Source: Minisyncoccota bacterium
GTDB taxonomy: Bacteria; Patescibacteriota; Minisyncoccia; Phycocordibacterales; UBA9973
Assembly: GCA_041658325.1 (NCBI GenBank)
Contig: JBBAAI010000001.1
Span: 154,869 to 218,868, forward strand
Direction of reading: 5' to 3'
Length of the DNA: 64,000 nucleotides
In this document: positions 5,936 through 61,253 of the stretch, piece by piece
How the letters are laid out: every line of letters starts with the position of its first letter
Numbering within the stretch: position 1 is the stretch's first letter
Notes under the pieces: generated by a model
Database searches by the model: none
What the model was told of the DNA's origin: nothing
The model's input: the letters and a program-made list of their open reading frames with translations, nothing else
Translations under genes and position numbers: made by a program

Positions 5936-6472
5936 CTATTCTGCATTAGTATACACATCTTGGACATCATCATTTTCTTCTAAATCTTCCACTAATTTGT
6001 CTAATAATTCTAAATCAGTGTCAGAAAGGGAAACAGTGGTTGTTGGTACCCACAGAAGTCCTTCGGAACTTTTTTCTTTTTTAAATGCCCAAGCAACCGA
6101 ACCAATTCCACCTAAGGCAAAACCATTTTTAGAAAGGACGTGTTTTATGTCTTGGGCTGTTCTATTTTTACTATCTGTTAAAGTTTCAATAATTATTCCT
6201 ACTCCTCCTGGGCCATATGCCTCATAAACAATTGCATCCATATGAGCTCCCGGCTCACTTGCTTTTTTGATAGCTCTCTCAATGTTTTCTGCCGGCATGT
6301 TTACTTTTTTTGCTTTTTCAATTGCTGAGCGTAATCCAGGGGATTCTTTACCCCCCGACAATTTTGCTTCTACTGAAATAAAACGCACTAGTTTAGAAAA
6401 GATTTTACTTTTTTTTGAATCAGTAATTGCCTTCTTGTGTTTTATTTGTGCCCACTTATTGTGTCCTGACAT
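5936..6472 (-). CDS. YebC/PmpR family DNA-binding protein (short form)
   Basis: MSGHNKWAQIKHKK N-terminus characteristic of the YebC/TACO1 family; classic position between ruvC and ruvB. Confidence 0.7.
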   Translation of the reverse strand: MSGHNKWAQIKHKKAITDSKKSKIFSKLVRFISVEAKLSGGKESPGLRSAIEKAKKVNMPAENIERAIKKASEPGAHMDAIVYEAYGPGGVGIIIETLTDSKNRTAQDIKHVLSKNGFALGGIGSVAWAFKKEKSSEGLLWVPTTTVSLSDTDLELLDKLVEDLEENDDVQDVYTNAE

Positions 6473-6480
6473 AAAAATAT

Positions 6481-7524
6481 TTAAAGTAATTTTTTTTGTA
6501 AATCTTCTGGAAGATCAAAACCTAAATGTTCATATGCTTTTTTAGTAGCAATGCGTCCGCGAGGGGAGCGTTCTAAGAGGCCGAGTTGAAGTAAGTATGG
6601 TTCTATCACTTCTTCCACTGTGGCCTCTTCTTCTGACATTGCAGCACCAATTGTTTTTAGCCCCACTGGTCCGCCGTTAAATTTTTCAATCAATATTTCT
6701 AAAAATTTTCTATCAGAGGAGTTTAATCCAATATCATCAATTGCAAGCATATTAAGGGCTTCTTTAACTGTTTTTTTATTTAAATCTTTTTTATGTACTT
6801 GGGCAAAGTCTCGACAACGTTTCAAAAAATAATTTGCGGTACGTGGAGTAAATCGACTTCGCTCGGCAATTTCTTTTATGGCTTCATTTTCTAGTATCGT
6901 TTTTAAAAGCTTACTGGATCTTTCTATTATTTTTGCAATTTCTTCATTGGAATAAAATTCCAATCTGAAAACTCCACCCGAAAAACGAGAACGAAGGGGA
7001 GAGGAGACCATGGCGACTCTAGTGGTTGCCGCAATTAAAGTAAAAGGAGGAAGATCTAGTTGAATGGTGCGAGCGGACGGGCCTTTGCCGATAATAATAT
7101 CTAAAACACCAGACTCCATTGCTGGATAGAGTATTTCTTCTACCATTTTATTAAGTCGATGAATTTCATCTATAAATAAAATATCTCCAGAAGAAAGATT
7201 TGTAAGGATAGAGGCTAAATCACCTACTTTTTCAATTGCCGGACCAGAAGTGATCTTCATTTGTCTACCTGTTTCCTTGGCTATAAGGTGCGCAAGGGTG
7301 GTTTTTCCTAATCCAGGAGGTCCATAAAATAAAATGTGTTCAGGAATATGGCCACGCTCTTCTGCCGCTCGCAGTAAGATTTTTACGTTGTCTTTTATGT
7401 GTTTTTGGCCGATATATTCATCCCAACTAGTAGGGCGAAGAGTTTGGTCTAAAAAAGAGTCATCAATAGTTGTGTTTTTTTCTGGGGTTATTTTATTTGG
7501 TGTTTTCGTGTTTTTGCTTGACAT
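6481..7524 (-). CDS. ruvB: Holliday junction branch migration ATPase RuvB
   Basis: Walker A GPPGLGKTTLAHLIA; RuvB-type AAA+ domain plus winged-helix C-terminus; 347 aa. Confidence 0.9.
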   Translation of the reverse strand: MSSKNTKTPNKITPEKNTTIDDSFLDQTLRPTSWDEYIGQKHIKDNVKILLRAAEERGHIPEHILFYGPPGLGKTTLAHLIAKETGRQMKITSGPAIEKVGDLASILTNLSSGDILFIDEIHRLNKMVEEILYPAMESGVLDIIIGKGPSARTIQLDLPPFTLIAATTRVAMVSSPLRSRFSGGVFRLEFYSNEEIAKIIERSSKLLKTILENEAIKEIAERSRFTPRTANYFLKRCRDFAQVHKKDLNKKTVKEALNMLAIDDIGLNSSDRKFLEILIEKFNGGPVGLKTIGAAMSEEEATVEEVIEPYLLQLGLLERSPRGRIATKKAYEHLGFDLPEDLQKKLL

Positions 7525-27384: not shown

Positions 27385-27470
27385 ACTCTCTAAAGATATG
27401 ACGTAGAAACAATGTTTTTATTTCATAGCTTTAGAGAGTGGAGGAGGGGAGCAATGCTCTCCCTCCTCAC
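27385..27470. promoter_or_regulatory. two adjacent inverted repeats in the intergenic region between surface-protein genes (terminator/regulatory)
   Basis: cactctctaaag...ctttagagagtg (12-bp arms) and gaggaggggag caatg ctccctcctc (11-bp arms). Confidence 0.4.
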
Positions 27471-27480
27471 AACAGATGTC

Positions 27481-28296
27481 TCAGTAGTAATAACCGGTAT
27501 TTCCGCCGTATCCTCCGTTAGGAGGAACGTAGCCATTGGTGTACCCACCAGGGTTGTATCCAGTGGTGTATCCACCGGGGTTGTAACTGCCAGTGTATCC
27601 GCCTACAGTGTAACCGCCAGTGTATCCGCCCGGAGGTACCCCAGGACGAACATAAGGAGGCTGGACGTAATTGTTGTAGCTGTACCCTCCGCCTCCGCAT
27701 CCTCCGCCCAAAGAAATGGAGAGCGAAAAGGATTTTGTGGCTACTGGCGGAGGTGCATAAGCAACCTCGTTTCCATTGTGTCCGTTGTACCCATTGTACC
27801 CATTGTACCCATTGTACCCCGGGGGTCCTGGGTCGCCCTTTTCTCCTTTGTCGCCCTTTGGTCCTTGAGTAAGCTGTGTTTGGTTTACTGTTGGAACAGG
27901 GGCTTGAACCGATGCATGAGGATAGTGAACCTCATATACCGGGTTGCCGCATGCGTCGAGTGCATAGGGCTTCAAGGTTTTATCTCCGAGCACATCCCAC
28001 CGCAGAACTGCTCCGGTGAGCAGGATGACCCACTGCTTTCCGGCGGTGGTCAACATGTGGACCACCGCGTTGCTCTCCAGCGGGGCCGTGATCTTGTTGG
28101 TCCCGTTCACTGGATTGTTCTCCTTAAACCCAAAGTACTTGGGCTCATAGGGGGTAAAGTTTCCCGAGAGTAGGGCAGCGTCTGCCGCCTCGCTGGTCGG
28201 AAACAGGTTGGGTTTGCTTTGAGCGCTGGCTGGCGCGCTCATCAGGGTGGCGACAACCGCCACGAAAACCAACGACGCTACCAGTGCTTTTCTCAT
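27481..28296 (-). CDS. secreted collagen-like, Gly/Tyr-rich protein; GC-rich (compositionally foreign)
   Basis: Signal peptide MRKALVASLVFVAVVATLMSAPASA; GPKGDKGEKGDPGPPG collagen triplets; (YNG)4; GGYTGGYT-type C-terminus; much higher GC than flanks. Confidence 0.6.
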   Translation of the reverse strand: MRKALVASLVFVAVVATLMSAPASAQSKPNLFPTSEAADAALLSGNFTPYEPKYFGFKENNPVNGTNKITAPLESNAVVHMLTTAGKQWVILLTGAVLRWDVLGDKTLKPYALDACGNPVYEVHYPHASVQAPVPTVNQTQLTQGPKGDKGEKGDPGPPGYNGYNGYNGYNGHNGNEVAYAPPPVATKSFSLSISLGGGCGGGGYSYNNYVQPPYVRPGVPPGGYTGGYTVGGYTGSYNPGGYTTGYNPGGYTNGYVPPNGGYGGNTGYYY

Positions 28297-28446
28297 CTTA
28301 AGCCCTCCTCAGGCTATTATTACTACTTTTTTGGTGTGCGATGCGGAGAGAGTCTCCACATCTCTTTCGTCTAAGATTGTATCATACACCCATAATAATG
28401 TCAAGTGCTATGTAGACAAATAGTTTATGTGTGTTTTTATGAATTG

Positions 28447-28518
28447 TGCCTCCGGCAGGAATCGAACCTGCATCATAACTTCCGCAAAGTTACGTCCTAT
28501 CCATTGAACGACGAAGGC
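28447..28518 (-). tRNA. tRNA-Arg (anticodon read as GCG)
   Basis: Reverse complement folds as gccttcg acceptor, D-stem gttc/ggac, anticodon stem taact/agtta with loop ttGCGga, T-arm gcaggttcgattcctgc; no CCA. Anticodon assignment by hand. Confidence 0.6.
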
Positions 28519-40458: not shown

Positions 40459-40644
40459 ATGTCAAAAATTATTGAATATTTAAAAGAAACGAAGACAGAA
40501 TTAAAACATGTGGTTTGGCCACCAAGAAGTCAGACTTTATACTATACTTTGATAGTTGTTGTTTTGTCTGTTGTAATTTCATACTATTTAGGCATTTTTG
40601 ATTTTATTTTTTCACAAATCTTACAGAAAATAATCGTTATTTAA
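40459..40644 (+). CDS. secE: preprotein translocase subunit SecE
   Basis: 61 aa single TM; position immediately upstream of nusG. Confidence 0.8.
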   Translation: MSKIIEYLKETKTELKHVVWPPRSQTLYYTLIVVVLSVVISYYLGIFDFIFSQILQKIIVI

Positions 40645-40651
40645 ATTTACA

Positions 40652-41194
40652 ATGAAACAAGAAACATTAGGAGTTAGAAATTGGTATGCTATCCATACTT
40701 ATGCCGGATACGAGAACGTCGTTCTTCGTAATTTGCGTCAGCGCATTGATTCTCTCGGTATGAACGATAAAATTTTCAATGTTATTGTGCCAGTAGAAAA
40801 GAAAATAAAAATTAAAGCTGGTAAAAGAGTGGAAGTAGAAGAAAAAATTTATCCAGGATATGTGTTGGTGGATATGATTGTAACAGACGATTCTTGGTAT
40901 GTTGTTCGCAATACCCCACGCGTGACTGGTTTCGTCGGGGCGGGAGTGAACCCTGTTCCTCTTAAAAAAGAAGAAGTGGATTATTTGTTTAAAAAGATGG
41001 ATGCTGGTACGACTAAACACAATATTGATTTAGCGATTGGTGAAACTGTACGCATTGCGGATGGACCGTTTAAGGATCTCGAGGGTAAAGTTAACTCAAT
41101 AGATCAGGATCGAGGTAAGGTAAAAGTTCTTGTTTCAATGTTCGGTCGGGAAACTCCAGTAGAACTTGATTTCTTGCAAGTTAAGAAAATTTAA
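40652..41194 (+). CDS. nusG: transcription termination/antitermination factor NusG
   Basis: NGN domain WYAIHTYAGYENVV; C-terminal KOW. Confidence 0.9.
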   Translation: MKQETLGVRNWYAIHTYAGYENVVLRNLRQRIDSLGMNDKIFNVIVPVEKKIKIKAGKRVEVEEKIYPGYVLVDMIVTDDSWYVVRNTPRVTGFVGAGVNPVPLKKEEVDYLFKKMDAGTTKHNIDLAIGETVRIADGPFKDLEGKVNSIDQDRGKVKVLVSMFGRETPVELDFLQVKKI

Positions 41195-41211: not shown

Positions 41212-41637
41212 ATGGCAAAAAAGATAACTAAAAAAATAAAACTACAAATTCAGGCTGCGAAAGCAACTCCAGCGCCACCTTTAGGGCCCGCTCTCGGTCA
41301 GGCTGGTATTAATATTGGAGATTTCGTTACCAAGTTTAATGCTGTCACGGCTAAAATGGCCGGAGACAAAGTCGGTGTTTCTATCACTGTTTACGAAGAT
41401 CGCAGTTATGACTTCGTTGTTAAAACCCCTCCCGTAACTGGTTTAATTCTAAAAGCAGCTGGAGTAGAAAAAGGTTCAGGCAAAAACGCCTCAACTAAAG
41501 TTGGAAAAATAACTAAAGCTCAAGCGCTTGAAATCGCCAATAAGAAACGCGTAGATTTGAATGCTAAAGATGACGAAGGAGCTATCAACATTATTGCTGG
41601 TTCCGCTCGAAGTATGGGCATTGAAATTAAAGACTAA
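41212..41637 (+). CDS. rplK: 50S ribosomal protein L11
   Basis: [27 protein letters not shown] typical L11. Confidence 0.9.
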
Positions 41638-41645
41638 AAGAAAAG

Positions 41646-41675
41646 CCAACGGGAACGTTGGCTTTTTGCTTGATG
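41646..41675 (+). terminator. intrinsic terminator after rplK
   Basis: aaagccaacg ggaa cgttggcttttt. Confidence 0.7.
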
Positions 41676-41691
41676 GGGGTATAATTGTGTT

Positions 41692-42195
41692 ATGAAAAAA
41701 GAAACTAAAAAAGTAGCCAAGCACAAAAGGCCATCTTGGGATGAATATTTCTTACAATTAGCAGAAATAGTCGGGTCTCGTGGAACTTGTGATAGGGGTA
41801 GGGCTGGAGCAGTTATCGTTAAAGATAAAAGAATTTTAGCTACTGGTTATGTTGGGGCGCCCGTGGGGCTTCCAAGTTGTGACGACATAGGACATGAAAT
41901 GCATACAGTTAAAAATGAAGACGGTTCTGAGTCTAGACACTGCATCAGAACTTCACATGCAGAACAAAATGCGATAAACAACGCAGCTAGAGTAGGAGTC
42001 GCAGTAGAAGAAAGCACGATGTATTGCAAAATGGCTCCATGCTATAAATGCGCGCAAAGTATTATTAATTCAGGGATTGTTCGTATTGTGGCCATGAAAG
42101 ATTATCATGGGGCGAACAGAACAAAGGAAATTTTTAAACAAGCCAAAATCAAACTAAGTATTTTGGGAGAAATGCAAATTTATAAAGATATGTAA
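41692..42195 (+). CDS. dCMP deaminase (cytidine/deoxycytidylate deaminase family)
   Basis: Zinc-binding HAEQNAI and PCYKC motifs. Confidence 0.8.
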   Translation: MKKETKKVAKHKRPSWDEYFLQLAEIVGSRGTCDRGRAGAVIVKDKRILATGYVGAPVGLPSCDDIGHEMHTVKNEDGSESRHCIRTSHAEQNAINNAARVGVAVEESTMYCKMAPCYKCAQSIINSGIVRIVAMKDYHGANRTKEIFKQAKIKLSILGEMQIYKDM

Positions 42196-42199
42196 TTTT

Positions 42200-42748
42200 A
42201 TGAAAATTATTCTAGGTTTAGTCGGATCACTAGCCAGCGGGAAAGATACCACAAAAAAATATTTGGCAGAAAAATATGGAGCCAAAGATTGCAAATTTTC
42301 TAGTATTTTACGTGATGTTTTAAATAGAATTACTGTTCCAGTCAGTCGAGAAAATATGCAGAACCTCTCAACTGTTTTAAGGGCGAATTTTGGAGAAAAT
42401 TTATTGGCAAGAGTAATTGCGAATGATGCTTCCAAGCTTTATGCTGAGATTGTGGTTATTGATGGCGTCCGAAGACCTACTGATATTGAACATTTAATTA
42501 AACTACCAAACTTTTTTTTAATAAAAATTGATGCTGACCCGCATTTGAGATATGAGAGAATGATAAAAAGAAATGAAAACGAGGGAGATGATAAAAAATC
42601 TTACGAGCAATTTCTAAAAGATCATGAAGCTGAAGCAGACAGCCTGATTCCAGTCGTGATGGAATCCGCAAAATATTCTATTGAAAATAGTGGTAGTTTG
42701 GAAGATTTATATAAACAAATAGATGAAATAATTAAGAAACTTTCCTAA
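42200..42748 (+). CDS. deoxynucleoside monophosphate kinase-like P-loop kinase (phage T4 gp1-like)
   Basis: MKIILGLVGSLASGKDTT closely parallels the T4 dNMP kinase N-terminus MKLIFLSGVKRSGKDTT. Confidence 0.5.
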   Translation: MKIILGLVGSLASGKDTTKKYLAEKYGAKDCKFSSILRDVLNRITVPVSRENMQNLSTVLRANFGENLLARVIANDASKLYAEIVVIDGVRRPTDIEHLIKLPNFFLIKIDADPHLRYERMIKRNENEGDDKKSYEQFLKDHEAEADSLIPVVMESAKYSIENSGSLEDLYKQIDEIIKKLS

Positions 42749-42755
42749 TTATTTT

Positions 42756-44111
42756 CTATTTTAGAACAATATCGTGTTCTCCTCTTTTGATATCAAATCG
42801 GTCTATTTCTTTATCTAAATGTATTACTAACCCAAATTTTCCAAAAAGGTTGAGCAAAGAATCAGCCATCATTTTGGCTTTTTTCCTTAAGGTAGGATGT
42901 ACGAATCTTGTAGCTCGTAATTCCGTTAAATACACCAAAGCGGGGATTCCGCCAGTTAATCTATTTGAAATATTATATCCCATAGCCAGATAGTATTGTC
43001 TTTCCTCTTTAGAAACATTTATTTTTTTGATTTTATCTTCTTGTTTTTCTAAAAATAATTTTGCTTTAGTTCTTAATTCTTCGGGTAGTTCCTCCAGATA
43101 CCATTTTTCGAAACCGATTTCTGGGGTTAAAAGAGGCATTCTTTGAATAACGGCGCGATGTCTTTGGATGTCGCGAAACGATCCGAAATCAAGAAGAAAT
43201 TCAAATTGCAAAGTTCCAGCTTCGCTCAAGTATTTCGGTAATTCTGTTTTTGCAGGTCTATTTTCTAGAATTTTTTTCAGCAATAAACTGGTGTTTATAG
43301 AATTATTCACCATTTTAAAATCTGGACAATTTTTATCGTGATAATAGTAATCTTTTTCCATCCATTCTTTGTTATAATTTTCCGTATTCTCGTAGTGTTC
43401 ATGTCCAAACGAGTTTGGAAAAGCTAAACGCAAAGCCTCTTCTATCGCTTCAGCAACATTTTTAACTTCCTCAAGTGGATGATGACGGAGTAGCATTACT
43501 TTATCCGCTGCTTGTCTTAAATTTGTATGCCAAGCCAAATTTGTTGTTGACCCAGCCGGTAAAAATCCTCTTAATATATCAAAAGCTCTGGCGCTGATAG
43601 CTTTGTCATAAATGATTTCTTTTTCTCCTTCGCCTAGGGGAAATTGTGCCTTTAAATATTTCTTAGTTGGTTCTAATGCTTCAATATAAAACTTTCTGTA
43701 AGCTTCCAATATTTCTTCTCCTTCTTTTGTGCCTAGTGGATTTTTAAATGGTTGAGTTTGAAAATCAATATATCTTGTTGAGGATTCTTGTCCGGAATAT
43801 AAAGGCCAGTCTTGTATGGCTTTCGCTACTAACATTGAAACCCCTTCAATAAATATTGAAGTAGTACCGCAGTCGCCGATAGATTTGTGCCCATAGCCGA
43901 CATAAAAGTTTTTCATAAAATTCTCCGGTCCTTTTTCTGAAAGAATTTTCAAATGATTTTTGAGTCCTCCAGTAGAACGAGAGTGAAGAGCCTGGAGCAT
44001 CGCAGCTGATTCTGGTCCGATGACCGAGCCGGTATCTAAAACGATAACTACGCCGCCTCCTTTTATTTGTGTTTCTGAATGTTTAAGTTCTTCGAGATTT
44101 TTATTTGCCAT
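42756..44111 (-). CDS. ThyX-like flavin-dependent thymidylate synthase, unusually long (451 aa, possibly duplicated domain)
   Basis: RHR motif (FRDIQRHRAVIQR) and S-x-RY (ESSTRYIDF) reminiscent of ThyX; context with dCMP deaminase and dNMP kinase. Motif order is atypical, so the call is tentative. Confidence 0.4.
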   Translation of the reverse strand: MANKNLEELKHSETQIKGGGVVIVLDTGSVIGPESAAMLQALHSRSTGGLKNHLKILSEKGPENFMKNFYVGYGHKSIGDCGTTSIFIEGVSMLVAKAIQDWPLYSGQESSTRYIDFQTQPFKNPLGTKEGEEILEAYRKFYIEALEPTKKYLKAQFPLGEGEKEIIYDKAISARAFDILRGFLPAGSTTNLAWHTNLRQAADKVMLLRHHPLEEVKNVAEAIEEALRLAFPNSFGHEHYENTENYNKEWMEKDYYYHDKNCPDFKMVNNSINTSLLLKKILENRPAKTELPKYLSEAGTLQFEFLLDFGSFRDIQRHRAVIQRMPLLTPEIGFEKWYLEELPEELRTKAKLFLEKQEDKIKKINVSKEERQYYLAMGYNISNRLTGGIPALVYLTELRATRFVHPTLRKKAKMMADSLLNLFGKFGLVIHLDKEIDRFDIKRGEHDIVLK

Positions 44112-44223: not shown

Positions 44224-45495
44224 ATGTATACACACAAAACGGCTCATCCGAAGAAATTTGGAGGCCACACTACTTTTAAAGTGAAACCGCGTTTTGGCGC
44301 GAGTAAATCCGTCCGTCGCCCACACGGTGTTTTTAACGGTTCCCGTTTTAAAAAGGGTGGAAGTAAAAAATCTCGCGGTGAACATATAGATTTTTCACGT
44401 TTCATAAAAAAAGGAACGCACGTAGAAGAAAAGCCATATGTGGCGAAACATACTTTTGCTGATTTTCCTTTTGCTCCGCAACTGCATAAAAATATTGAAA
44501 GGGCAGGATTTAAAGATCCTCGTCCGATACAAGATCAAGCCATTCCGTCAGTCATGAAAGGGCATGATGTTTTCGGCATGGCGAATACTGGTACAGGCAA
44601 GACCGCAGCATTCTTACTTCCGCTTATAGAGAAAATTTATAAAACAAAAGGGCAGAGTAAAAGAGAAACCGTGCTTATCATGGCACCGACGCGCGAGCTC
44701 GCGCTACAAATAGAAAGTGATTTTAAAAATCTCGCTTTTGGTTTCGGTATGTTTTCTGTCGCCTGTGTGGGAGGACTTCCGATCATGAAACAAATTCGCG
44801 AAATAAAAATGGGAGTTTCGTTTATTATCGGTACGCCGGGGCGTTTGCGGGATTTAATAGATAAAAAAGTTTTAGATCTAACTACTTGTCATTCTGTGGT
44901 GCTCGATGAGGCAGATCGAATGCTCGATATGGGTTTTCGTGATGATATGGTTTATATAATTGGTAAGACAGCGAAAGAAAGACAAACCCTTTTCTTCTCT
45001 GCGACCCTTTCTCCAGAAATTAAAAAATTAACCGAACATTATTTAAAAGAACCAATTTTTATTTCGGTTATTTCTGGCGAGACGGCAAAAAATATTGATC
45101 AAGATGTTATTCGGGTGAAAAGTACTGCCGAAAAAATAGAAAAGCTACACGAAGTTTTGAAAAAAGACGGTTCGGACAAAGTTCTCATTTTTCGAGAGAT
45201 GAAACACAGTGTGGATACACTAGCGAAAGAGCTTGCGCATATGGGTTTCAAAGTCGGGGCGATTCATGGCGACAAAAGAAGTCGTGAGCGTATCCGTATT
45301 CTTGATTCATTCAAAAAAGATAAAATTAATATTTTGATTGCGACTGACGTCGCTGCACGCGGACTGGATATCCCAGACGTGACGCATGTTATCAATTACG
45401 ACGTGCCACAAACTTACGATACTTATGTGCACCGCATCGGCCGAACTGGCCGCTCTGGTAAAAAGGGAAATGCCTTAACCTTTGTTCCTGCGTAA
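44224..45495 (+). CDS. DEAD-box ATP-dependent RNA helicase with basic N-terminal extension
   Basis: Q-motif, GTGKTAAF, DEAD (VLDEADRM), SAT, HRIGRTGR motifs. Confidence 0.85.
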   Translation: MYTHKTAHPKKFGGHTTFKVKPRFGASKSVRRPHGVFNGSRFKKGGSKKSRGEHIDFSRFIKKGTHVEEKPYVAKHTFADFPFAPQLHKNIERAGFKDPRPIQDQAIPSVMKGHDVFGMANTGTGKTAAFLLPLIEKIYKTKGQSKRETVLIMAPTRELALQIESDFKNLAFGFGMFSVACVGGLPIMKQIREIKMGVSFIIGTPGRLRDLIDKKVLDLTTCHSVVLDEADRMLDMGFRDDMVYIIGKTAKERQTLFFSATLSPEIKKLTEHYLKEPIFISVISGETAKNIDQDVIRVKSTAEKIEKLHEVLKKDGSDKVLIFREMKHSVDTLAKELAHMGFKVGAIHGDKRSRERIRILDSFKKDKINILIATDVAARGLDIPDVTHVINYDVPQTYDTYVHRIGRTGRSGKKGNALTFVPA

Positions 45496-45544: not shown

Positions 45545-45850
45545 ATTTCCAGATGCACAACAGGTTAGCCATCGTCTTATTCGTCGTCCTTCGACCTCTA
45601 GGGGCCAGGACAAAACCAGTCATCAGGCTGCAACCCAAGAGGTAGTAGCCAACACAAAGAAAGAGAGGTGTAACCTCGGCGGGCGCAAGTGGATTGGGAC
45701 TCCACAATCACGTGATCGGGTTCGACTCCCGCATCCATGGCAACATGGAAGGGCTGTGGTTAAGTCCGCTACGAACAAGAAAATCCGAAATCCCCGGAAC
45801 CAAGAACCAAGGGGGTGCTGGCAAGCCGGCACCCCCTAATTTTTTTTAAT
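45545..45850 (+). ncRNA. unassigned ~300-nt structured RNA with own promoter and terminator; contains tRNA-like T-arm (candidate tmRNA-like or other)
   Basis: Sigma70-like ttgcaa-N17-tatgct at about 45513-45536; GC-rich body; GGGUUCGACUCCCG T-arm-like hairpin (45717-45731); ccatg GCAA catgg GNRA hairpin; terminal gggggtgctggcaagccggcaccccc + T8 terminator; no long ORF. Confidence 0.4.
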
Positions 45851-58590: not shown

Positions 58591-58750
58591 AAAGATAGTT
58601 CTTTAAAATTACTTGCGAAGGTGGTCATAGCCAAAAGGTGCTTAATATTAGGCATTTCCTGGCTATGACTACCGTTGTGGTTGTCCTCTAGCAAAAACCT
58701 AACCGATGCGTCCTATGGGATGTGTCAAAGAAAAAGGAAGGATGTGCCAA

Positions 58751-59377
58751 ATGGCAAATGCGTCCGAAATCTCTGTCGGTTTAGTTCACGAGCTCGCCAT
58801 CACGGGCACCAAGGTCGGATTCGAGCCCAAAGACTTCGCTACTCTCGCCCACAGCGAGGAAAGGATGTCTTCCATCCTCGGCGTGCTTCATGGTACGCAC
58901 GAGATCCGTCCGATCGATTATGTGATCGATTTCAACTCTCCGGCTCGGTTGCCGTTCAACGGTGCCGTGCTCGAGGTGCACCGCGGAACGGGCATCGTCA
59001 AGCTCGAGAAGAAGGCCGACGGCCTGTATCTCGACGGAAAGAAGCTCACGCTCTTTCTCTCCAAGAAGCAGAAAAAGGGAGGCGTCATCGAGGGCAACAA
59101 GCTTCGCATCGAGCTCGAAAAGAGGGGTAAAAATGTAGGAGCGAAACTCCTTGACCACTTCGTCGAGCATCCAGAGATGTGGCCCGAGGAGTGGAAGAAG
59201 GACGACCAGGGTAATACGCTCTACGTGTTTTTCTGGGATGACATCTTCCGCAACCCGGCGTGTGGCGATCTGTATGTCCGGTGTGGGTGCTGGCGCGGAG
59301 GCGAGGTCATCTCGGGCTACGACTGGCTCGGCGATGACTGGCGCGGCCGCAGCCCGGCTGTCTCTTCCGTAAGTTAG
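58751..59377 (+). CDS. DGR target (variable) protein; C-terminal VR; GC-rich
   Basis: About 208 aa. The 3' 124 bp is homologous to the TR with mismatches only at TR adenines. Start chosen at MANASEISVG (aggaagg SD 9 nt upstream); ORF track alternative start is 58706. Confidence 0.75.
   Translation: MANASEISVGLVHELAITGTKVGFEPKDFATLAHSEERMSSILGVLHGTHEIRPIDYVIDFNSPARLPFNGAVLEVHRGTGIVKLEKKADGLYLDGKKLTLFLSKKQKKGGVIEGNKLRIELEKRGKNVGAKLLDHFVEHPEMWPEEWKKDDQGNTLYVFFWDDIFRNPACGDLYVRCGCWRGGEVISGYDWLGDDWRGRSPAVSSVS
59246..59369 (+). repeat. DGR variable repeat (VR)
   Basis: ttccgcaacccggcg...gctgtctcttccg; 104/124 identical to TR; all 20 mismatches lie opposite TR adenines. Confidence 0.85.
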
Positions 59378-59426
59378 TAATCAGAACTTTGCCTCTTGGA
59401 TCTTCTTGATCCTTGAGACTTAGTCC

Positions 59427-59473
59427 TTGGGCCCTGTGTGTTTGCTTCGGCATTCGCGCAGGGCCTTTTGTTT
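59427..59473 (+). terminator. hairpin + T-run after target gene
   Basis: gggccctg tgtgtttgcttcggcattcgcg cagggcc ttttgtttt. Confidence 0.55.
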
Positions 59474-59706
59474 TGGTAAAATAAATATGGTAGTAGGTGA
59501 ATACGCGAGCGACCACGGTTTCTCGCTACCGAATCCAGTATCCGTATGTCGAGAATATTTGCGACTAAGGTTTCAAATAGGGTGATATACGAAGACACTT
59601 CAAAAATGAAGTTACTTGGTGTAAGGTGCTATGGCATTACGATGCCGAATACGATACAACCTTGAGAGTATTCAAAAGGTGGTGGCACAGAAGGCAGCTT
59701 ACACAT

Positions 59707-59830
59707 TTCCGCAACCCGGCGAATGGCAATCTGTATGTCCGGTATGGGTACTGGAACGAAGGCAAGGTCATCTCGAACTACAACTGGCTCGACAATGACT
59801 GGAACGGCAACAACCCGGCTATCTCTTCCG
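59707..59830 (+). repeat. DGR template repeat (TR)
   Basis: Intergenic copy of VR, rich in AAC/AAT codons (nine Asn codons in VR frame). The open frame in the ORF track (59626..59859) is a consequence of VR homology. Confidence 0.85.
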
Positions 59831-59839
59831 CAACTTACT

Positions 59840-60205
59840 TCATTTCTCTCTCGTCTTAACGGCGGGAGAGTTTTGTTTTAGGAGTTGTCCGTTCCAACCC
59901 CCGAGCATTTTTCCAATTTCTTCTATTTTTTGAGAAAGAACAATATATTTTTTATCGTCAATTGATTTTGCTTCCCATAAAACCATCAAAAGTATTTTTA
60001 GAGTATCTGATTTTCGTATCGCTAACCGAACCCAAGGATGTTTTTCTTCTCGAGATAAAAAAGTAGCGATAGAAACAGCTTCAATAATTTCAATAAACAT
60101 CGTATCAATCTTTAATCCCAAAGAGTGCTTGTGTATTTTGGGCAGAATTTGATAAAAGGTAATCCAGAGAAGATAACAGCTCTTAACTTTTGCCAATAAT
60201 GGCAA
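59840..60205 (-). CDS. avd: Avd-like four-helix-bundle accessory protein (TIGR02436 / 23S rRNA-IVS protein family-like)
   Basis: About 120 aa; EAVSIATFLSRE and EEIGKMLGGW match the AVSIPSNIAEG and eeIgkML signatures of the family; lies between TR and RT on the opposite strand; apparent TTG start. Confidence 0.5.
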   Translation of the reverse strand: MPLLAKVKSCYLLWITFYQILPKIHKHSLGLKIDTMFIEIIEAVSIATFLSREEKHPWVRLAIRKSDTLKILLMVLWEAKSIDDKKYIVLSQKIEEIGKMLGGWNGQLLKQNSPAVKTREK

Positions 60206-60210
60206 AAGTT

Positions 60211-60220
60211 GGGGGGGGGG
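60211..60220. repeat. G10 homopolymeric tract in the divergent avd/RT intergenic region
   Basis: gtt gggggggggg tac, 17 nt upstream of the RT ATG. Confidence 0.9.
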
Positions 60221-60236
60221 TACTATTATAAATACT

Positions 60237-61253
60237 ATGTCCCGAATCCAATTTAGTCATACTTACGACTATATCATTTCTCTAGAAAATCTGCTTTTGG
60301 CGTGGAAAGAATTTGTTGTCGGCAAGAAAAATCGCAAAGACGTAGAAGAATTTCAAAGAAATTTGATGACTAATATAATTTCGTTACATACGGATTTAGT
60401 AAATAAAGCATACAAGCATTCCCAATATGAAGCATTTAATATTTCTGACCCAAAACCGCGCAATATTCACAAAGCGAAAGTACGGGACAGATTATTACAT
60501 CATGCGATTTATCGAGTTTTGTATCCTTTTTTTGACAGGACATTTATTACTGACTCCTATTCTTGCAGAAAAAACAAAGGAACACATAAAGCCATAAACA
60601 GATTCAGAAAATTTGCCTATCAAGCGTCAAAAAATCATACCAGAACAGTTTGGGTTTTGAAAGGGGATATTAAAAAATTCTTTGCTAATATTGATCACGA
60701 AATATTAAAAGGAATTTTGAGAAAACATATTCAAGATAAAAATGTTCTTTGGCTCTTGGGGCAGGTGATAGATAGCTTTTCTTCCCAAAAACATATTTAC
60801 GCTATCGCTGATATATGCAGTAAGGGTTTACCACTCGGCAATCTAACTTCCCAACTTTTAGTAAATATTTATATGAATGAATTTGATCAATTTGTGAAAC
60901 ATAAAATCAAAGCGAAACACTATGTTCGTTATGCGGATGATTTTGTAATTTTGTCGCAAAATAGAAAATGGTTAGAAAATACAATTGTTAGAATAAAAGA
61001 TTTTCTTGAAAATGAACTTATGCTTTCTTTACATCCTGCAAAATTATCCATAAGTACCGTTGCCTCTGGCGTGGATTTTTTGGGTTGGGTTTTATTTCCA
61101 GACCATAGGGTAGTCAGGACTATCACGAAACGGAGGATGTTTCATGGTGTAAAAAAGAAGCACGGGAGTTTTGAAACAGTGCAATCATATCTAGGCTTGT
61201 TAAGCCATGGAAATGCAAGAAAGTTAGAAAGTGAGATAAAAAATTATATTTGA
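60237..61253 (+). CDS. DGR-type reverse transcriptase
   Basis: RT motifs 1-2 (ISDPKPRNIHKAKVRDRLLHHAIY), motif 4 LGNLTSQLLVNIYM with DGR-specific SQ, motif 5 YVRYADDFVIL (YADD); 338 aa. Confidence 0.85.
   Translation: MSRIQFSHTYDYIISLENLLLAWKEFVVGKKNRKDVEEFQRNLMTNIISLHTDLVNKAYKHSQYEAFNISDPKPRNIHKAKVRDRLLHHAIYRVLYPFFDRTFITDSYSCRKNKGTHKAINRFRKFAYQASKNHTRTVWVLKGDIKKFFANIDHEILKGILRKHIQDKNVLWLLGQVIDSFSSQKHIYAIADICSKGLPLGNLTSQLLVNIYMNEFDQFVKHKIKAKHYVRYADDFVILSQNRKWLENTIVRIKDFLENELMLSLHPAKLSISTVASGVDFLGWVLFPDHRVVRTITKRRMFHGVKKKHGSFETVQSYLGLLSHGNARKLESEIKNYI

Follow-up and report, generated by a model that had tools for sequence, protein, structure and literature searches.

A probable thymidylate-supply cluster with a tandem long ThyX behind rplK in a Candidatus Paceibacterota chromosome

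The genes behind rplK and the dCMP deaminase

The DNA analysed here, referred to below as the window, is a 64-kb stretch of a Candidatus Paceibacterota chromosome (Patescibacteria; candidate phyla radiation, CPR); all coordinates are window positions, and whatever is described as absent is absent within those 64 kb. Our subject is a group of three genes—for a deoxycytidine monophosphate (dCMP) deaminase, a P-loop nucleotide kinase, and a long form of the flavin-dependent thymidylate synthase ThyX—which group follows secE-nusG-rplK and a terminator-like hairpin; the first two genes lie on the plus strand and the long thyX on the minus strand. An earlier note on this DNA had described precisely such a set of open reading frames (ORFs), and all three were recovered at the positions given there. 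Two independent public assemblies show the genes in the identical order, which is therefore no assembly artefact; the kinase sequence also recurs without a difference on a 356-kb contig of a Candidatus Paceibacterota metagenome-assembled genome, which places the window in a Patescibacteria chromosome. The features of the locus are the following (aa, amino acids; nt, nucleotides; AF2, AlphaFold2):

40459–40644, plus strand: secE (Pfam SecE, 65 bits)
40652–41194, plus strand: nusG (Pfam NusG and KOW)
41212–41637, plus strand: rplK (uL11), with no rplA after it (Pfam Ribosomal_L11_N and Ribosomal_L11)
41641–41671, plus strand: terminator-like hairpin GCCAACG-GGAA-CGTTGGC (AAAAGCCAACG-GGAA-CGTTGGCTTTTT), then the T-run TTTTTGCTT
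41658–41685, plus strand: promoter-like TTGGCT-16-TATAAT, stopping 6 nt short of the ATG at 41692
41692–42195, plus strand: dCMP deaminase, 167 aa (Pfam dCMP_cyt_deam_1, PF00383)
42200–42748, plus strand: P-loop nucleotide kinase resembling the UPF0200/PRK08356 proteins, 182 aa
42756–44111, minus strand: long ThyX, 451 aa, whole ORF (Pfam Thy1)
43407–44111, minus strand: N-terminal ThyX domain of the long ThyX, residues 1–235 (Pfam Thy1 at residues 48–233)
42759–43406, minus strand: C-terminal ThyX-fold domain of the long ThyX, residues 236–451 (AF2 model and Foldseek)
43770–43781, minus strand: S-T-R-Y, residues 111–114, the dUMP-binding half of the ThyX motif (dUMP, deoxyuridine monophosphate)
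43155–43163, minus strand: R-H-R, residues 317–319, the FAD/dUMP-binding half of the ThyX motif (FAD, flavin-adenine dinucleotide)
44224–45495, plus strand: DEAD-box helicase, divergent neighbour of the long thyX, given for context only (Pfam DEAD and Helicase_C)

In the palindrome scan the hairpin is listed for the minus strand; the plus-strand T-run was taken straight from the letters. The promoter-like site is the top one of the region with 10 of 12 matches, which figure denotes a match to the consensus only, the total of such sites not being above that found in shuffled sequences. Since the box ends 6 nt from the ATG of the deaminase, the mRNA of the deaminase and the kinase would be leaderless or nearly so. 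Many ATGs of the window lie 5–8 nt past a TATAAT-like box, for example in the deaminase, with the TATAAT at 41680–41685 and the ATG at 41692, and in thyX, with a TATACT 6 nt ahead of the ATG at 44111, which proximity suggests that leaderless mRNAs may be widespread in the window, in line with the anti-Shine-Dalgarno loss described for uL1-lacking Parcubacteria.

The deaminase matches Pfam PF00383 at 81.3 bits (cut-off 25) and the PHROG 174 dCMP deaminase family with an E-value of 8.5e-39, and carries the zinc motifs H-A-E and P-C-x-x-C, read from the translation as HAEQNA and PCYKC; the ComEB equivalog model TIGR02571 gave 115 bits, below its cut-off of 219.

We read the locus, with a probability of about 0.8, as a housekeeping thymidylate-supply cluster of the Candidatus Paceibacterota chromosome that contains a tandem long ThyX. 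According to this proposal the Zn-dependent deaminase would convert dCMP to dUMP; the 451-aa flavin-dependent ThyX would methylate dUMP to deoxythymidine monophosphate (dTMP); and the co-transcribed P-loop kinase would most likely phosphorylate a deoxynucleoside monophosphate (dNMP). Further genes of the operon in relatives are those for a thymidylate kinase of canonical type and, after it, a MazG pyrophosphatase. That the three genes form a pyrimidine-deoxynucleotide module for dTMP synthesis, as the earlier note had proposed, was borne out.

The long ThyX and its divided active site

The sole Pfam match of the 451-aa protein is Thy1 (PF02511), at 59.6 bits (cut-off 24.8) and over residues 48–233 only, and public databases name the protein FAD-dependent thymidylate synthase. 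More than 4297 close homologues were found, the long family comprising 493 clusters at 50% identity (E<1e-30) and occurring in at least 595 species genomes. A single-sequence phmmer search of the protein against the PDB found no ThyX. A profile of the family, made from 52 diverse long-ThyX members with 34–85% identity to the query, aligned residues ~69–238 to residues 63–230 of the Mycobacterium tuberculosis ThyX (PDB 3gwc), that is, the N-terminal half only. In this alignment the M. tuberculosis stretch RHRHFSYSQLSQRY stands opposite the QDWPLYSGQESSTRY of the N-domain, in which stretch the S-x-R-Y is kept and the RHR replaced, the position of the latter reading Q-D-W-P. The contiguous RHRx7SxRY is present in neither domain, the N-domain having QDWPLYSGQESSTRY and the C-domain RHRAVIQRMPLLT; the motif is thus split, and the S-x-R-Y of the N-half precedes the RHR of the C-half along the chain, a non-canonical order to which the earlier note had already drawn attention.

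The full-length AF2 model had a predicted local distance difference test (pLDDT) value of 94 and a predicted template-modelling (pTM) score of 0.91, and the 50 best PDB fold matches listed for that model were all ThyX. When the C-half (residues 236–451) was modelled alone the pLDDT was 91, and the 50 best Foldseek matches in the PDB were again all ThyX, with E-values down to 1.7e-6, a probability of 1.00, and template-modelling (TM) scores of 0.44–0.60 over ~150–215 columns. By these models, the 451-aa protein consists of two ThyX-fold domains in tandem. The suggestion of a duplicated or fused ThyX, for which the earlier note had named a two-domain fit to ThyX structures as the check, was accordingly upheld, the fit being positive by structure prediction and fold search. 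Two results weigh against our interpretation: the hhalign comparison of the N-half with the C-half was not significant (probability of 1% in local and 0.07% in global mode), so that the duplication is argued from the fold only, and the NCBIfam thyX equivalog TIGR02170 reached 20.9 bits against a cut-off of 87.9. The profile of the C-half, moreover, retrieved nothing relevant among the PDB sequences.

Among the 52 sequences, the N-domain residues S77, S111, and R113 are conserved in all, Y114 in 51, H75 and R181 in 50, and R199 in 41, the columns equivalent to the RHR being never RHR and the column matching the M. tuberculosis R199 being unconserved. In the C-domain, which is without an S-x-R-Y, the residues R313, D314, R317, R319, R399, and H405 are conserved in all 52 and H318 in 49. 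In the M. tuberculosis enzyme the site is composed of the RHR (95–97) and R199 from a subunit A, S71 and R190 from a subunit B, and R87, S105, R107, and Y108 from a subunit C (PMC6514825). The N-domain residues S77, R199, S111, R113, and Y114 of the window protein align to S71, R190, S105, R107, and Y108, respectively, which residues correspond to the roles of B and C, while the RHR and the ELR399xxxxxH405 of the C-domain match by motif the R95–R97, R199, and H203 of the role of A.

We therefore considered how such a chain might assemble. The long ThyX would derive from an ancient in-frame tandem duplication, after which the catalytic residues would have been parcelled out between the halves, with the C-domain furnishing the RHR and the R199/H203 equivalents (the part of the canonical subunit A) and the N-domain both the S-x-R-Y (the role of subunit C) and the S71/R190 equivalents (the role of subunit B). 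Two chains would then build a pseudo-tetramer. In a 222-symmetric tetramer with two N-type and two C-type positions exactly two of the four sites are complete; two sites would accordingly be complete and two dead, and from this we infer that the protein forms a homodimer built like the tetramer but having two active sites where the latter has four.

A different interpretation would be that the 451-aa protein is a ThyX-fold enzyme of some other activity, for instance another pyrimidine C5 modification, or that its C-domain is a mere scaffold. The lack of a contiguous canonical motif in either domain, the thyX equivalog score far below its cut-off, and the loss by the N-domain of the M. tuberculosis R199 equivalent would all fit that possibility, as would the existence of jumbo-phage homologues, which proteins could serve modified-base pathways. 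Against it stand the invariance, in one domain or the other, of all the kinds of residue that a ThyX site requires, the operon context with a dCMP deaminase upstream and, in relatives, tmk downstream, and the homology to a Chlamydia protein that is reported to have been demonstrated to be a flavin-dependent thymidylate synthase; we thus regard an activity other than thymidylate synthesis as quite improbable.

The Chlamydia comparison is the closest available to us. The enzyme of Chlamydia trachomatis has been catalytically characterised as a flavin-dependent thymidylate synthase according to the passage of PMC2386288 that cites Griffin et al., 2005. The chlamydial proteins in our set (P0275–P0280; 529–531 aa) are annotated as Thymidylate synthase ThyX, FAD-dependent thymidylate synthase, or UPF0159; by BLASTP, P0275 aligned with residues 43–426 of the window protein at 25% identity (E=1e-23) with the motifs in the same order, and hhalign of the chlamydial against the window ThyX family profile gave a probability of 100% and an E-value of 1.4e-47 over 423 columns. 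Like the window protein, the chlamydial enzymes (C. trachomatis CT632 and orthologues, formerly named UPF0159) have two ThyX-fold halves per chain, with EKS(T)RY in the first and DFGxYRDLxRHR and ELRSQPQGH in the second, the motifs common to both being YSRS, VSMLAAK, LRG(F/L)LPA..TN, DFG.(F/Y)RDLQRHR, and ELRS...H; furthermore, the columns of the first-half SxRY and of the second-half RHR and ELRS..H are invariant in both family alignments. The differences, for their part, lie in the low identity of ~25%, in the ~80 additional residues of the chlamydial chain, mostly between the domains, in another genomic context, and in a D in place of the H75 equivalent (GDDSIGE versus GHKSIGD in the window). 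The window protein, then, belongs to the known long, or Chlamydia-type, ThyX lineage.

With the canonical homotetrameric ThyX of 190–260 aa (Thermotoga maritima TM0449, M. tuberculosis Rv2754c, PBCV-1 A674R), the window chain shares the fold of each half and all the active-site residue classes (H, S, RHR, SxRY, and the arginines), and presumably, by analogy, the same chemistry with FAD, NADPH, and methylenetetrahydrofolate (CH2-H4folate). In contrast to those enzymes, the window chain corresponds to two diverged subunits with the RHRx7SxRY split between domains, its C-half is undetectable by sequence, and its predicted assembly is a dimer with two sites rather than a tetramer with four.

Literature searches on ThyX in Patescibacteria/CPR and on tandem or fused ThyX returned nothing on point, and a two-site dimer design was not found described for the ThyX class, the reported oligomeric state of the Chlamydia ThyX being outside that search; interpreting the long family explicitly as tandem ThyX chains whose halves have lost complementary parts of the site may be new, as may a functional context for UPF0200-like kinases. 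We would tentatively go one step further, though with somewhat less than even confidence, and propose a subfunctionalised fusion for the long ThyX that Patescibacteria, Chlamydiae, and jumbo phages share: the subunit would have been duplicated, each copy would have lost those active-site residues that the other kept, and the enzyme would act as a homodimer (a pseudo-heterotetramer) with two composite sites, while the deaminase-adjacent kinase would provide a first functional context, pyrimidine dNMP metabolism, for the UPF0200 family. The branch in question is large and barely studied: besides the Chlamydia enzyme, which is a drug target, it takes in thousands of CPR genomes and many jumbo phages. 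If the two-site dimer were true, the design of inhibitors and the mechanistic studies that start from the symmetric tetramer could not be carried over directly to this branch.

The kinase between the deaminase and thyX

In Pfam the kinase matched only the generic AAA_17 and AAA_18. The full-length similarity is to the archaeal AdkA-like kinases of the UPF0200/PRK08356 type, exemplified by the Sulfolobus SSO1041 (PDB 3lw7, 3h0k): a single-sequence search matched SSO1041 with an E-value of 4e-13, and a 27-member profile of the kinase family did so with an E-value of 1e-25 over 176 residues, the full length. Those kinases are, unlike the window protein, archaeal, and are uncharacterised, and the window kinase remained below the NCBIfam cut-off of PRK08356 (79.6 against 189 bits). 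Literature searches for UPF0200 and SSO1041 gave nothing on point.

The earlier note had seen in the N-terminus of the kinase a near match to the dNMP kinase of phage T4 (gp1; PDB 1dek), which claim stood only in part, the kinship with phage dNMP kinases being distant. What held is a shared SGKDTT P-loop and a common membership in PHROG 139, the deoxynucleoside monophosphate kinase family: the window kinase matches that family over residues 1–180 with an E-value of 3e-19, and T4 gp1 scored 222 bits to the same PHROG, the T4 sequence used having been validated by that score only. In a BLASTP alignment with this sequence, 15 of 41 N-terminal residues were identical and the C-terminal helix was similar, the likeness thus being limited to ~40 N-terminal and ~20 C-terminal residues of a protein that in T4 is 60 residues longer. 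Pfam DNMK (PF21448), in turn, gave 16 bits against a cut-off of 27.1 on residues 5–49, the P-loop, with similar sub-threshold matches in 18 of the 27 family members; the kinase profile matched 1dek over residues 5–41 only (E=1.6e-4); and the best match was to UPF0200. The phage matches of the kinase were to Bacillus, Paenibacillus, and Moorella phages at 28–29% identity, and among the 51 phage records that matched no T4-like phage was found.

In more than 20 distant loci the kinase lies between the deaminase and thyX. A role as a (deoxy)nucleoside monophosphate kinase in pyrimidine-deoxynucleotide supply is, given this position, our best guess, which guess we would put at even odds. A thymidylate kinase is ruled out, since the operon of relatives contains a tmk in addition to this kinase, as confirmed by Pfam. 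One could nevertheless view the protein as something other than a dNMP kinase: either a housekeeping kinase of the dephospho-CoA or adenylate type, or a regulatory partner of the deaminase, similar to the kinase-like domain of the anti-phage deoxycytidine triphosphate (dCTP) deaminase. The public annotations lean in the first of these directions, JGI calling the protein dephospho-CoA kinase and NCBI, for an exact match, AAA family ATPase (Ca. Paceibacterota); and the profile matched CoaE structures with E-values of 4e-8 to 1.6e-6 and adenylate kinases with ~1e-5 to 1e-4, both stronger than for T4 gp1. Pfam CoaE, however, stayed below its cut-off (18.4 against 27 bits), as did TIGR00152 (32.5 against 65.55), and both were confined to the N-terminal 70 residues, about the first third, whereas the best full-length matches were to UPF0200 and PHROG 139; the recurrent position between a dCMP deaminase and thyX likewise weighs against such a function.

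As to the second direction, the PADLOC dCTP-deaminase model was matched partially, by the deaminase on the deaminase part and by the kinase on the kinase part, and the model NF041025 was matched as well; the scores with the latter, at 61 and 19 bits, were nevertheless far from the cut-off of 400, and what we have here are two separate ORFs in the order deaminase-then-kinase instead of one kinase-deaminase polypeptide. The anti-phage reading of the pair was rejected accordingly, the partial matches showing only that such kinases and dCMP-type deaminases are recurrent partners. All in all, we consider it unlikely, but by no means negligibly so, that the protein has one of those other functions.

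The assignment of the kinase to the cluster has to be reconciled with a further adverse point: in the closest relatives (loci L001–L004) no kinase homologue was detected between the deaminase and thyX, the gap being too short to accommodate it, and the kinase may on that account be dispensable for the pathway. In those four loci the deaminase is directly beside thyX and convergent to it, while in locus L008 a kinase of 81% identity is present but differently spaced; the missing gene in the former and the shifted one in the latter indicate that the kinase has been gained or lost on short evolutionary timescales. Where it is conserved, the kinase constitutes a testable functional lead for the UPF0200 proteins.

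Chromosomal history of the module and other features of the window

An rplA gene was not found in the window, the best tblastn E-value being 0.8 with a Patescibacterial uL1 as the query (ORF 2186–2863 of the relative locus L064; Pfam Ribosomal_L1, 192 bits). The absence of uL1 is a known trait of a subgroup of Parcubacteria (Brown et al., 2015; confirmed by Tsurumaki et al., 2022, PMC9297842), which group is also largely devoid of the anti-Shine-Dalgarno sequence (PMC9297842). The window resembles those uL1-lacking Parcubacteria (OD1-L1) in its rplK without a subsequent rplA and in the Shine-Dalgarno-like motifs, which precede only 3 of the 54 genes in agreement with a reported anti-Shine-Dalgarno loss overlapping that of uL1; this likeness is drawn from 64 kb containing no 16S or 23S rRNA.

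The synteny sample consisted of the best 80 loci with relatives of the 451-aa protein out of at least 595 matching species genomes, the genomes of those 80 being labelled almost all as Patescibacteria lineages. In 45 of the 80, rplK is within 6 kb of the long thyX, and the co-directional order deaminase-kinase-thyX recurs in many distant loci. Some ten loci (Moranbacteria and allies) have rplK, then rplA, and then a co-directional kinase and long thyX, mostly with the dCMP deaminase ahead of these. Locus L064 reads secE-nusG-rplK-rplA-deaminase-kinase-thyX-tmk-mazG-gatB, the thymidylate kinase (Pfam, 50 bits) and the MazG pyrophosphatase (45 bits) standing before gatB. The presence of the module downstream of rplA in relatives that still have uL1 argues that it is an old chromosomal neighbour of rplKA, and neither a replacement nor a phage insert. 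The cluster would already have lain downstream of rplK-rplA in the common ancestor, and, as far as gene order can tell, the lineage of the window then lost rplA and inverted thyX, the cluster now following rplK because of that old neighbourhood and that loss. The statement of the earlier note that rplA had been replaced is therefore to be corrected: rplA is indeed missing from the window, but uL1 loss is a known trait and in L064 the module comes after rplA; the synteny comparison that the note had suggested pointed to an old neighbour of rplKA and not to an insert. For annotation, the odd gene order after rplK would be the product of a known lineage-wide loss of uL1 together with an old linkage between a deoxythymidine triphosphate (dTTP)-supply operon and rplKA.

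The earlier note had also taken the kinase and the long ThyX as a hint of a phage origin. The corresponding alternative, that the module or at least those two genes were a recent acquisition from a phage inserted at the former site of rplA, can draw on the distribution of the family: the long ThyX is carried by jumbo Vibrio phages (33% identity, 98% coverage), in a 491-aa form by the Microcystis phage LMM01 (BFVD, TM score 0.71), and by at least 99 IMG/VR contigs at 31–49% identity, most of these of 100–360 kb and some being metagenome-assembled genomes of giant viruses; and both the kinase and the deaminase match PHROG families. Among the 80 viral contigs examined, however, the kinase was beside the long ThyX in none and the deaminase in only three, and no T4-like phage figured among the phage relatives of the kinase. 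Orthologues of 73–90% identity retain the same chromosomal context in many Paceibacteria, and, as described above, distant Patescibacteria in which rplA is retained have the cluster downstream of rplKA. The guanine-plus-cytosine (GC) content of the module, 33–40%, is similar to that of the flanks, and no integrase, repeats, or tRNA were found at the borders of the module. Looking for the marks of a mobile or phage island, we thus encountered no compositional shift, a synteny conserved across the phylum (the kinase alone being patchy among close relatives), and viral homologues without the neighbouring genes, so that a recent phage acquisition appears highly improbable and the hint of the note was not sustained. 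The three-gene module is chromosomal and vertically inherited; the gradient of identity among relatives suggests that the ThyX and the kinase of the Paceibacteria are deeply nested in a clade that spans the Patescibacteria and agrees with the species tree. An ancient exchange of the long thyX between viruses and cells, by contrast with a recent one, is plausible. In one of the viral genomes, that of the Vibrio phage vB_VmeM-Yong MS32 (L081), the long ThyX at 5989–7374 is annotated as a hypothetical protein and a thymidylate kinase is 5 kb away.

Three other regions of the window deserve mention. A diversity-generating retroelement occupies 58706–61253, within the ribosomal-protein cluster and just after rplE. 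The target gene (58706–59377) is GC-rich and has no Pfam match, and its C-terminal variable region at ~59249–59372 matches a template repeat at ~59710–59833, all the mismatches in this repeat of ~120 nt being at adenines of the template; a bAvd-like accessory gene (59840–60205, minus strand) and a reverse transcriptase (60237–61253; Pfam RVT_1, 90 bits) complete the element.

Between the DEAD-box helicase and rpmB, a GC-rich non-coding stretch of ~300 nt (45545–45848) contains a T-arm-like GGGTTCGACTCCCG and ends in a strong terminator at 45810–45837, with a 12-bp stem including 9 GC pairs and then T8. No Rfam family at threshold, no ARAGORN prediction, and no homologue in the related loci were obtained for this stretch, and its folding z-score is only −2.0; it may be an unclassified small RNA.

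Finally, at 27400–28300 there is a local GC peak of 0.46 compared with ~0.34, with the long overlapping ORFs 27412–28173 (plus strand) and 27481–28296 (minus strand), adjoining a tRNA-Arg at 28446–28518.

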